From assembly GCF_000026545.1 (NCBI RefSeq), contig NC_011601.1: 64,000 bases of DNA, one strand, 5' to 3'. The position numbers are program-made. Positions 3,001-6,000 of this stretch are shown here, piece after piece. The first letter of the stretch is position 1; every line of letters starts with the position of its first letter. This stretch comes from Escherichia coli O127:H6 str. E2348/69. GTDB taxonomy: Bacteria > Pseudomonadota > Gammaproteobacteria > Enterobacterales > Enterobacteriaceae.

Positions 3001-6000
3001 AAGCATTAGTAATGGCTATTCTATATAGCAATATAAGAACTGTTACAAAAAAAGGGGGGGCAATTACAGGTAGTTATGGATGATGAGTGAAACAGATATT
3101 GGAGAACCGGGGAATGAATGATGTCTGAGTCTTATATATCAGAACTCCTTCGCTGTCGCTGGGGGCTCCTGTGCTTATGTCGTTTCCCCGATTCGGTTTT
3201 GAACGATTACCGAATGTTGAAGAATTATGCCAAAATATAGAAAGGATTTACTGCATGAATACCCAATATTTACAGTATGTTCGTGAGCAACTTATGGCAG
3301 CTACTGCTGACTTGAACGGAGCAACGAAAGGCCAGCTCGAAGCCTGGCAGGAGCATGCACAATTTGATACTGGTACATACAAACGAAAGAAGCCGCGCAT
3401 TCTGGATGTGGTAACTGGCAAGATGATTACGCTGGATAATACGCCGACTTCCGGTAAGCAGTCGTACGCAAAAGGTTCATCCATTGCTTTGGTCAGCCCG
3501 GTTGAATTCTCAACCTCTTCATGGCGCCGCGCGGTTTTGTCTCTCGATGAACATCAGAAAGCATGGTTGCTTTGGTGTTACAGCGAAAGCGTTCGATGGG
3601 GGCATCAGGCCACCATAACGCAATGGGCATGGAGCGAGTTTAAAGATTTGTTAAGTAACAGAAAAATTGCAGGTAAGACACTGGATCGCCTGAAGACGTT
3701 AATCTGGCTGGCTGCACAGGATGTGAAGAGCGAACTTGCAGGGCGTGAGGCCTATGAATACCAGACACTGGCATCATTGGTGGGAGTGACAACAAAAAAC
3801 TGGTCCGAGACATTTACTGAACGCTGGGTTGCAATGAAGCACATTTTTCTACAGCTTGATAGTGATGCTTTATTGCTTGTGACGAGAACACGTTCAAAAC
3901 AAAAGGCAGCATTTTTACAGCAAAATATTGCAAAACTGGATTAAAAGCCATATACTTCATGCAAATTTGGTATGTTGTAAAAAATGTATAAACCCGCTGC
4001 CGAGTGGTTTTTTTTTATGCCCTGAGTTGTACTTGTACGGTAAACATGCTGGCTGCTATGTAATAGAGTTTTTTTAGCCTGTAACCTCTTGACGGCATTG
4101 AATTGCTTTTGTTATGAGTTGTAAGCCAATGTTATCATCTTGTATTGGGGTGGTTATGAAGGATGGTGCGCTGCTCAGGAGTTCTTCACTTTTTATTGCC
4201 TACATGGGATGCCTTGGATGGGGGAGTGCTTATTTCTATGGATGGGGTACTTCTTTTTACTACGGCTTCCCATGGTGGATTGTAGGTGCAGGTGTTGATG
4301 ATGTTGCCAGAAGTTTATTTTTTGCAGTTATCGTCATTGCTATATTTCTTATCGGTTGGGGTATTGGTGTTGTATTCTTTTTCGCAGTGAAAAGAAAACA
4401 TTCTATGCAAGAGCTAAATGTATTTCGCCTTTATTTTGCTGTGGAATTATTGTTTGTGCCGGCAATTATTGAGTTTTCTATATTGAGACAGAAGATTCAG
4501 GTACCTCTTTTGCTACTGTCAGCAGCGATTGCGCTGGCGGTTACAATTTCGATAAGATCTTATGGGCGATTTTTATCGGTATCATGCTTCTATGATAAGC
4601 CATTTATAAAAAAACATTTTTTTGAGATTGTGATGATTGCTTTTGTGGCATATTTTTGGCTTTTTTCATTTCTGACAGGATATTACAAACCACAGTTTAA
4701 GAAAGAATATGAAATGATTAATTATAATGATGGTTGGTATTATGTTCTTGCTCGTTATGATAATTGTCTGGTTTTGTCTACTTCTTTCAATGCAGGTAGT
4801 AAAAGGTTTGTCATTTATCAATCAGCACAAGATAAGAATCTTCAGGTTGATATTGTAAGGACCAGAATTTAATTGGCTGCATAAATAATATTTTAAGTTG
4901 CAAGTTGGCTATTCGTAGGAATAGAACCTTAGGCATGCTGAATGCGTTTTCTGAACATTGTTTTATAAACTGTGTCTGCTTGCTGTTGTGATCCTGCTTT
5001 TAGTGATGGTGATGATGGATTTCACCAGCAGGATAATGTTGGTACTGACTGATGGCGCTCTGGTCTGCGGCATTGTGGTATTGCTGTGGCCGATGATGAA
5101 AGAACAGAATGAATAATTCTTGACTTTTTTGTTTACTGTTTATTAAAAAATCAACCGCATGGTGAATCCTCCTTGGAGGGGCTAAATGATCGAGTTTTAA
5201 GGGCACGTAGCGAGTTCTGTTTGATCATTGCAGAACTTAGCGGGAGGCGCCATGCGTACATCACTAGTGTTATTCCTTTTATCATTTTCCTTGTGAGTTC
5301 TGGCTGCGCATTGCGCAGCCTTTTTTTTATGACCTGCCACTGGCAGATGGTCATCCTGTGATTTGATTCCGCTTCCGGCTTTTTAACTCTGTTCCTCTAC
5401 ACGGGAGAAATTCGATGTCGATTAAACATTACGATGTTGTCAGGGCGGCGTCGCCGTCAGACCTTGCGGAAAAGCTGACACACAAACTGAAAGAGGGCTG
5501 GCAGCCATACGGCGGACCGGTTGCCATTACGCCGTACACACTGATGCAGGCGGTGGCTATTGAAGGAGAGCCACAGGTCGGCCCTTCATCTGAGCCGGAT
5601 TGGTACTACGTCATCGTACTGGCCGGGCAATCCAATGCCATGGCTTACGGTGAAGGGCTTCCGCTGCCGGATTCATACGATGCTCCGGATCCGCGCATTA
5701 AACAGCTGGCGCGCCGCAGTACAGTGACGCCGGGCGGGGCTGCCTGCAGATATAACGATATTATTCCGGCTGACCACTGTCTGCATGATGTGCAGGATAT
5801 GAGTACGCTGAATCATCCGAGGGCTGACCTGAGCAAAGGGCAGTACGGCTGTGTCGGCCAGGGTTTACATATTGCCAAAAAACTGCTCCCGTATATCCCG
5901 AATAACGCGGGGATCCTGCTGGTACCATGCTGTCGTGGTGGTTCGGCATTTACCCAGGGCGCGGAGGGGACATTCAGCGAGTCCACGGGGGCCAGTCAGG

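Follow-up and report, generated by a model that had tools for sequence, protein, structure and literature searches.

In a window of 64,000 nucleotides (nt) from the enteropathogenic Escherichia coli (EPEC) O127:H6 str. E2348/69 (contig NC_011601.1), a prophage gene on the + strand at 4156–4872 was found to code for a putative inner-membrane protein of 238 amino acids (aa) belonging to the TfpB/STM1630 family. The preferred reading, held at about even confidence, is that this gene is a lysogenic-conversion moron whose product works at the periplasmic face of the inner membrane, on some component of the host envelope. This reading is based on the mobility of the single gene together with a promoter-like motif, its AT-richness and its rarity in phages, as well as on its stable retention in pathogen chromosomes and virulence plasmids and the virulence-type regulation of the Salmonella homologue STM1630. 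The sequence and the family are already catalogued in Pfam, PHROG, RefSeq and the annotation of phage 434.

Start codon, base composition and coding status

The first-pass annotation had placed the gene in an open reading frame (ORF) of 252 aa at 4114–4872, counted from the first ATG. This ORF on the + strand is real, whereas its start had to be revised. Since nearly all full-length homologues have a length of 236 to 238 aa and align from Met15 of the 252-aa ORF onwards, and since the in-frame extension 5′ of ATG 4156 is not conserved, the coding sequence was set to 4156–4872. The ATG at 4156, located 42 nt downstream of ATG 4114, is thus almost certainly the true start codon. The upstream extension amounts to 3 open codons in the relative locus L009 and to 7 in L029, and in a 94%-identical allele (L022) it contains no ATG. 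The 238-aa form is also the one annotated in the phage 2B8 record. Starts at 4114 (252 aa) and 4129 (247 aa) were rejected in favour of 4156 for the same reasons.

The GC content of the gene is 36.1% compared to 51.9% for the whole window, in agreement with its earlier description as AT-rich. Homologous genes have a GC content of 32–38%, their loci of 42–47%. The pairwise ratio of non-synonymous to synonymous substitution rates (dN/dS) was 0.06–0.08 for unsaturated pairs and at most 0.20 for the remaining pairs. These low values identify a protein-coding gene under purifying selection.

Family membership and distribution

No protein family had been recognised at first pass, which could be corrected. 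A precomputed match to the Pfam family PF27470 (“TfpB”) exists for the identical protein and for 102 other homologues, the PHROG assignment is phrog_1521 (category “unknown function”), and some copies carry the RefSeq name “STM1630 family protein”. By these sequence matches the window protein belongs to the PF27470 TfpB/phrog_1521/STM1630 family. A profile built from 27 members recovered the identical protein with an E-value of 3.8e-95 and the Moraxella “protein tfpB” with an E-value of 2.4e-61. The direct hmmscan search against Pfam-A resulted in noise only (best E-value 0.42) because the Pfam-A copy searched is older than PF27470. The NCBIfam search of the window protein gave nothing significant, and a literature search on PF27470, the protein accessions and alternative Salmonella locus tags turned up nothing further. 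The family is small, as a set of 1.8 billion proteins contains 55 of its representatives at the 50% identity level, and its members occur in Enterobacterales, Pasteurellaceae, Neisseria and Moraxella.

CPT_434_68 of phage 434, annotated as “putative membrane protein”, matches the window protein at 100% identity, as does a hypothetical protein encoded by O26, O157, O111, O145 and EPEC prophages; the gene product of phage 2B8 is 98% identical to it. Among 50,697 phage records, 434 and 2B8 are the only two carriers; the gene is absent from phage 434B and from every other phage record searched. A homologue was found in 1,196 out of 5,426 complete E. coli genomes (22%). In 678 of them, including O157:H7, O111 and O145, the best match is at least 99% identical, with 99.9–100% identity in the O111 and O145 genomes. 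The 2.5 kb of the window from 3000 to 5500 are present at about 99.9% DNA identity in O26:H11 11368, EPEC E2348/69 and many further genomes. The O157:H7 copy lies in a matching module with the order LpxR-YlcG-Q-gene-DUF3927, and this module also occurs in O26.

A search for related loci using a 13-sequence alignment resulted in only 7 loci, 2 of which are E. coli contamination in metagenome-assembled genomes (MAGs). On the contigs concerned, L017 and L018, whose MAG labels are Veillonella and Lachnospiraceae, the gene is 98–100% identical to that of E. coli, and this identity almost certainly reflects binning contamination by E. coli prophage DNA.

Protein architecture and predicted topology

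The protein had been described as having about five aromatic-rich transmembrane helices and a soluble tail of approximately 55 aa. This architecture was recovered: hydropathy and an AlphaFold2 (AF2) model concur on five helices followed by a C-terminal soluble beta domain of about 55 aa, and F, W and Y together make up 21% of the residues. The AF2 model was computed from the 27-sequence alignment and reached a predicted local distance difference test (pLDDT) of 77 and a predicted template modelling score (pTM) of 0.70. It places the helices at residues 10–36, 47–78, 89–111, 116–136 and 155–181, and five strands across residues 184–235. K and R are enriched in loop 2 (+1.9) and loop 4 (+2.0) and are missing from loop 1. 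From the model and this charge bias we infer a topology with a cytoplasmic N-terminus, five transmembrane helices and a periplasmic 55-aa beta domain.

The highest conservation was found in the first transmembrane helix (TM1) and loop 1. The conserved elements are the glycine/aromatic TM1, the YYGFPWW loop, the residues D48, R52 and S53 at the mouth of the second helix, and the segment GYYKPQFKKEY leading to the beta domain; the family N-terminal motif LGWGSAYFYGWG..YYGFPWW..ARSL is present in the window protein in the alignment. According to the predicted topology, the most conserved elements would all be oriented towards the periplasm. The alignment contains no conserved constellation of His, Asp and Ser of catalytic type.

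Foldseek template modelling scores (TM-scores) to the Salmonella, Neisseria and Glaesserella members ranged between 0.79 and 0.91; they were 0.85–0.91 for the Salmonella and Neisseria homologues, with the value of 0.91 for Salmonella. Against AFDB50, Foldseek returned uncharacterised family members only, apart from weak Bacillus and DUF1616 matches, and against the viral proteins of BFVD it gave 0 matches at E ≤ 0.001.

Genomic contexts and mobility of the gene

Comparison of the loci shows that the gene moves as a standalone single gene, mostly beside virulence cargo. A 68%-identical copy is located between Q/N6-methylase/tRNA genes and NanS-p/DUF1378/DUF826/holin genes in a late region like that of Shiga toxin (Stx) phages, and by its position this slot is the one where Stx phages carry stx. 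On plasmids of enterotoxigenic E. coli (ETEC), a 59%-identical copy is divergent from eltAB, which encodes the LT toxin, among insertion sequence elements. A 57%-identical copy is found on 106 Shigella plasmids (out of 156 plasmid records with a match), of which the one checked, pWR501, is the invasion plasmid. A 46%-identical copy is divergent from sseJ in Salmonella, where the chromosomal copies form a cluster of 2,681 members. The chromosomal copy of Citrobacter rodentium is 66% identical, and its downstream genes adh and trg match those at the Salmonella locus. The copies in Pasteurellaceae and Neisseria lie between unrelated housekeeping genes. Most copies are thus in non-phage virulence islets or plasmids, or are vertically kept in Salmonella. 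In a Neisseria MAG (L032, 4001–5670), a TfpB-family gene and a DUF6973 gene were observed within the isc operon, between hscB and hscA.

Phages 434 and 2B8 differ in the Q/pR′ modules that flank the cargo module at a joint around position 4012. Phage 434B has lost this region yet propagates as a phage (PMC9119081), and it contains no homologue, which means that the gene is dispensable for phage growth. The earlier assignment to a late-operon cargo slot, as used for stx, is borne out by the viability of 434B and by the 68%-identical homologue in the Stx-phage-like late region. As expected for a moron, the gene is present or absent between homologous phages, dispensable, and deviates in base composition. 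An own terminator directly after the gene is, however, missing: the interval 4872–4958 contains no convincing terminator (z −0.02).

A function in lysis timing or virion release, with expression only from pR′ under Q antitermination, would agree with the location of the gene on the late strand between pR′ and the lysis cassette and with phage 2B8, in which no convincing terminator separates pR′ from the gene. Such a late phage function is nevertheless very improbable, since 434B grows in its absence (PMC9119081), homologues occur in contexts free of any phage genes, and the gene carries its own promoter-like motif.

The moron reading is in line with well-studied lambdoid cargo. The stxAB genes of Stx phages and the nmpC/lc porin genes of DLP12/PA-2 occupy the same slot from Q/pR′ to lysis, are likewise AT-rich, non-essential and variably present between similar phages, and allow autonomous expression as well as expression through late read-through, part of which is established knowledge of these phages. 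The window gene differs from them in that its product is a putative inner-membrane protein instead of a toxin or porin, and in that no strong terminator directly follows.

The first-pass annotation had suggested a superinfection-exclusion or abortive-infection factor, which would block the entry of incoming phage DNA or kill the infected cell. The protein is in fact a non-essential, prophage-borne inner-membrane protein in a cargo slot, its conserved surface is predicted to be periplasmic, where injected DNA and tape-measure proteins cross, and the adjoining small protein is labelled “TciB-like ... resistance to colicin” in PHROG. In this respect it resembles P22 SieA, T4 Imm, lambda RexB and HK97 gp15, which are small to medium-sized, dispensable, prophage-encoded inner-membrane proteins. 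The likeness is one of category only, as no similarity in sequence, profile or fold was detected in the libraries searched, and the TfpB/STM1630 family differs from these proteins in being mainly chromosomal or plasmid-borne. Positive evidence for exclusion or abortive infection was not obtained: PADLOC-DB contained 0 defence families matching the window protein at E ≤ 1, the Pfam-A, NCBIfam, PDB and BFVD searches were equally empty, and the PHROG category is “unknown function”. Further points against this role are that the gene is nearly absent from sequenced phages (2 out of 50,697 records), that it is stably kept in the Salmonella chromosome and on Shigella plasmids, and that it lies outside defence islands in Pasteurellaceae, Neisseria and Moraxella chromosomes. 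Furthermore, the strong purifying selection shows no sign of diversification, and the only experimental data on a homologue, STM1630, concern virulence-type regulation and host infection instead of phages. Exclusion or abortive infection is therefore considered unlikely.

Linkage to lpxR

A lipid A 3′-O-deacylase gene, lpxR (1820–2779, − strand; phage 434 and RefSeq annotation, phrog_2309), was identified as a further moron upstream of Q. In the window as well as in phage 434 and O157, lpxR is at most 1.4 kb away from the membrane protein gene. In a second prophage type (L009–L011, lpxR at 5972–6919), the two genes are convergent with a distance of 250 bp, and on the C. rodentium chromosome a frameshifted lpxR is divergent at 180 bp. 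The relative locus L029 contains lpxR at 3863–4823. The identities of LpxR and of the membrane protein in the three linked lineages were 70%/68%, 73%/66% and 77%/71%, respectively. This parallel divergence argues for long co-inheritance. No lpxR was found within 3.5–6 kb of the gene in phage 2B8, L022, the ETEC plasmids, Shigella pWR501 and the Salmonella locus. In enterohaemorrhagic E. coli (EHEC), lpxR is part of the Ler/Pch regulon.

The linkage raises the question of a partner in lipid A remodelling, which would enable or tune LpxR-dependent 3′-O-deacylation or a PmrD-linked modification at the inner membrane. Apart from the recurring neighbourhood in window/434/O157, the second prophage type (with pmrD in L010) and C. 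rodentium, and from the parallel divergence, the nearly invariant R52, which is predicted to sit where the membrane meets the periplasm, could bind a phosphate head group. Conversely, the loci without a nearby lpxR and the missing catalytic-type His/Asp/Ser constellation do not fit this role, and the co-divergence can arise from simple co-inheritance of one AT-rich islet. We regard such a partnership as improbable.

Two further observations were made at these loci. In L010, a homologue of PmrD, the connector of PhoPQ-PmrAB lipid A modification, is encoded at 7187–7504 (− strand) next to lpxR and the TfpB-like gene; this trio is located in the stx slot of an Stx-phage-like prophage, with tRNA-Met and tRNA-Lys genes upstream. 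In the 434, O26 and O157 prophages, a truncated N-terminal fragment of a lambda-type Q precedes lpxR (window approximately 1610–1700, corresponding to L001 1501–1590), which suggests that a block of lpxR, ylcG, Q82 and cargo replaced an earlier Q region.

The homologues STM1630 and Moraxella TfpB

The Salmonella copy was identified as STM1630 (SL1344_1560), a gene of 717 bp adjoining sseJ, and a published deletion primer for it, which encodes NSSMLLAYLGGLGWG, confirmed the identification. STM1630 shares 46% identity over 238 aa with the window protein and the same fold of five transmembrane helices and a beta domain (TM-score 0.91). Both are AT-rich single genes beside virulence cargo, sseJ and steB for STM1630 compared to lpxR and the stx slot for the window gene. 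STM1630 differs in being chromosomal, vertically inherited in S. enterica and co-regulated with Salmonella pathogenicity island 2 (SPI-2), and its mapped promoter is located about 220 nt upstream and has no CTTGACG motif.

STM1630 has steB and sseJ as its neighbours on either side, is missing from S. Typhi, is bound by H-NS and has its own mapped transcription start site (PMC6785131, Text S1). It was found to be expressed in SPI-2-inducing medium and inside macrophages, and none of the ST313 strains has an intact −10 box for it (PMC6785131, Text S1). Mutants have been reported to be attenuated in calves and chickens, and deletion in strain 4/74 increases intramacrophage replication (PMC6785131, Text S1). 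STM1630 also belongs to a set of genes described as sharing the regulation of SPI-2 (PMC2639726).

TfpB of Moraxella bovis and M. lacunata, the name-giver of PF27470, is 29% identical to the window protein and has a similar length and architecture. Its gene lies between two opposed pilin genes, inside the known invertible type IV pilin cassette, whereas the window gene has no pilin gene nearby. In one orientation, tfpB is directly downstream of the complete pilin gene. In L034–L037, the side of tfpB that carries the complete (N-methyl) pilin gene varies with the assembly, so that both inversion states are represented.

An accessory role for type IV pilins or pseudopilins, in which the protein would bind their membrane-embedded N-terminal helix and influence how a pilus or a type II secretion pseudopilus is assembled or retracted, could be derived from this position and from the small-residue face of TM1 (G21/A25/G29/S33), which suits helix-helix packing. 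It is hardly to be expected for the window gene, as no pilin gene was found in the window from 1 to 12000 or in any of the enterobacterial, Pasteurellaceae or Neisseria loci examined. Moreover, Moraxella tfpB is not known to affect piliation or to have any other function.

Transcription signals around the gene

A promoter-like motif, CTTGACG-N15-TGnTAT, consisting of a −35 hexamer and an extended −10 element, is located at 4088–4115 (+) and moves with the gene. It occurs exactly once, 41–44 nt before the start codon, in 17 loci including the ETEC plasmids. These 17 loci represent three diverged gene lineages, between which the synonymous divergence (dS) is above 1.4 and the flanks are otherwise unrelated. 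The fixed distance of the motif across saturated lineages is good indirect evidence for a promoter travelling with the gene. The ATG at 4114 falls inside the −10 element of this motif.

A second promoter-like site, TTGTTA-18-TATCAT with an upstream TG, was detected by consensus scan at 4109–4138 (+) in the window and in phage 2B8. It is kept only among close alleles, partly in ETEC, and its predicted transcription start is about 11 nt before ATG 4156. The CII box (TTGYN6TTGY) marked by the 434 annotators at 4109–4122 was rejected, as the 15 matches in the window compare to 14.3 expected by chance.

Upstream of the gene, a Q82-type late antiterminator is encoded at 3255–3944 (+) with a phrog_304 E-value of 1e-107 and 90% nt identity to Q of phage 82 (X92588). 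The mechanical ORF of Q begins with GTG at 3171; the annotators' start at 3255 was used. At 3928–3956 (+), where Q ends, the consensus scan detected a late-promoter-like sequence, TTGCAA-17-TATACT, which overlaps Q and is a putative pR′. Homology to the Q82-type phage PhiR47_2 reaches to about 3977 and then ends. At 3994–4016 (+) follows a weak terminator-like hairpin of 5 bp with a run of U9 (dG −6.2 kcal/mol, z −1.8), which the phage 434 record OL657226 annotates as “terminator”. This hairpin is a candidate tR′ at the recombination joint of the cargo module. In phage 2B8, homology from about 4012 onwards joins the cargo to a lambda-like Q and pR′; the hairpin is degraded, and no convincing terminator was found between pR′ and the gene.

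The strongest + strand terminator is located at 5302–5328 (dG −17 kcal/mol, z −3.7); at first pass it had been named as the first strong one. The first-pass reasoning, by which transcription from the late promoter would reach the gene before meeting a terminator, was incomplete, since the weak hairpin at 3994–4016 precedes the gene. The strong terminator ends a small RNA (sRNA) gene. The suggested expression in the lysogen is plausible in view of the travelling promoter-like motif and the weakness of the upstream hairpin.

Proposed role in the lysogen

According to the preferred moron reading, the AT-rich promoter of the gene itself, which H-NS probably silences, would yield small amounts of the protein in the lysogen. 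After induction, a high level would be reached by read-through of Q-modified RNA polymerase from pR′. The protein would not be needed for phage growth; it would act on a host envelope component on the periplasmic side of the inner membrane, thereby changing the surface or virulence-related physiology of the lysogen.

Several points weigh against this role. No family member has a known biochemical function, and the association with virulence loci may reflect no more than common AT-rich hot spots of integration and the intensive sequencing of pathogens. The topology and the promoter activity of the window allele are predicted, H-NS silencing is probable, and the −10 hexamer of the conserved motif has no usual final T. 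The STM1630 phenotypes are weak or inconsistent: the hypermotility of a mutant (PMC4219756), left unused here, was not reproduced by clean deletions (PMC4534456), and strain D23580 tolerates a dead STM1630 promoter (PMC6785131, Text S1).

Downstream genes and a PasD-like sRNA

The order of the region given at first pass, with the gene after a Q-like antiterminator and before a NanS-p esterase and a lysis cassette, is confirmed by the annotations and by phrog_304. Directly downstream, a small DUF3927/“TciB-like” membrane protein of 52 aa is encoded at 4958–5116 (+; phrog_1470, E-value 2.5e-17). This gene is co-cargo only in 434-type phages and is absent beside homologues in other contexts.

A gene for a PasD/STnc100-like, Hfq-dependent sRNA was identified at 5127–5331 (+), ending in the terminator at 5302–5328. 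The full-length match to Rfam RF02076 (STnc100) scored 41.4 bits (E-value 1.2e-6), slightly below the gathering score of 47, and a −35-like hexamer, TTGACT, precedes it at 5120–5125. In phage 2B8 and E2348/69, the gene of the EPEC sRNA PasD immediately precedes that of the esterase; PasD has a structural relationship to STnc100, and Q and LpxR are conserved in its neighbourhood (bioRxiv 10.64898/2026.05.13.724894); in uninduced EPEC it is abundant (PMC8550237). The sequence at 5127–5331 occupies this position ahead of the esterase gene and close to Q and LpxR, and on these grounds it is assigned to PasD. Since the STnc100 match ends at 5302–5328, that terminator belongs to PasD. A 62-aa ORF at 5173–5361, annotated as “putative membrane protein” in phage 434, overlaps the sRNA and is probably not coding.

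The downstream edge of the cargo slot is formed by a SASA-family (NanS-p-like) esterase gene at 5415–7265 (+), identified from the ORF and annotations. The lysis cassette with holin, signal-anchor-release (SAR) endolysin and spanin genes begins at 7713. The gap between esterase and holin genes (7265–7713, +) contains two terminator-like sites at 7569–7586 and 7631–7657. This is where another sRNA gene, pasC or pasA, has been described for phage 2B8 and EPEC (bioRxiv 10.64898/2026.05.13.724894). The Rfam scan of 7265–7713 resulted in no sRNA match, and Rfam has no model for pasC or pasA.

Implications for the family

On the present evidence, the gene is an unremarkable “hypothetical membrane protein” moron that points neither to a new mechanism nor to a new kind of system, and proteins of identical sequence occur in hundreds of EHEC and EPEC genomes. 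Its distribution across pathogens and the co-inheritance with lpxR are worth noting, while nothing in them would surprise a specialist. What is perhaps under-appreciated is that one gene is found beside Stx-slot cargo, LT toxin, SseJ and LpxR and on Shigella plasmids.

A wider interpretation, which is speculative and rather unlikely, is that the TfpB/STM1630 family is a single-gene, mobile envelope-tuning factor common to EHEC/EPEC, ETEC, Shigella, Salmonella and C. rodentium, in which a periplasm-facing site would control surface remodelling. The most concrete candidate for the remodelling step would be LpxR-dependent lipid A deacylation because of the co-inheritance with lpxR through three rearranged lineages; pilin or pseudopilin dynamics, by analogy to Moraxella, may be an alternative. 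The gene would then also be easy to study, since phage 434 and the natural deletion 434B provide ready genetics. If envelope tuning were true, the placement in the stx slot would couple the gene dose to prophage induction. If an effect on envelope or virulence were proven, the gene would be a common conversion factor across enteric pathogens.

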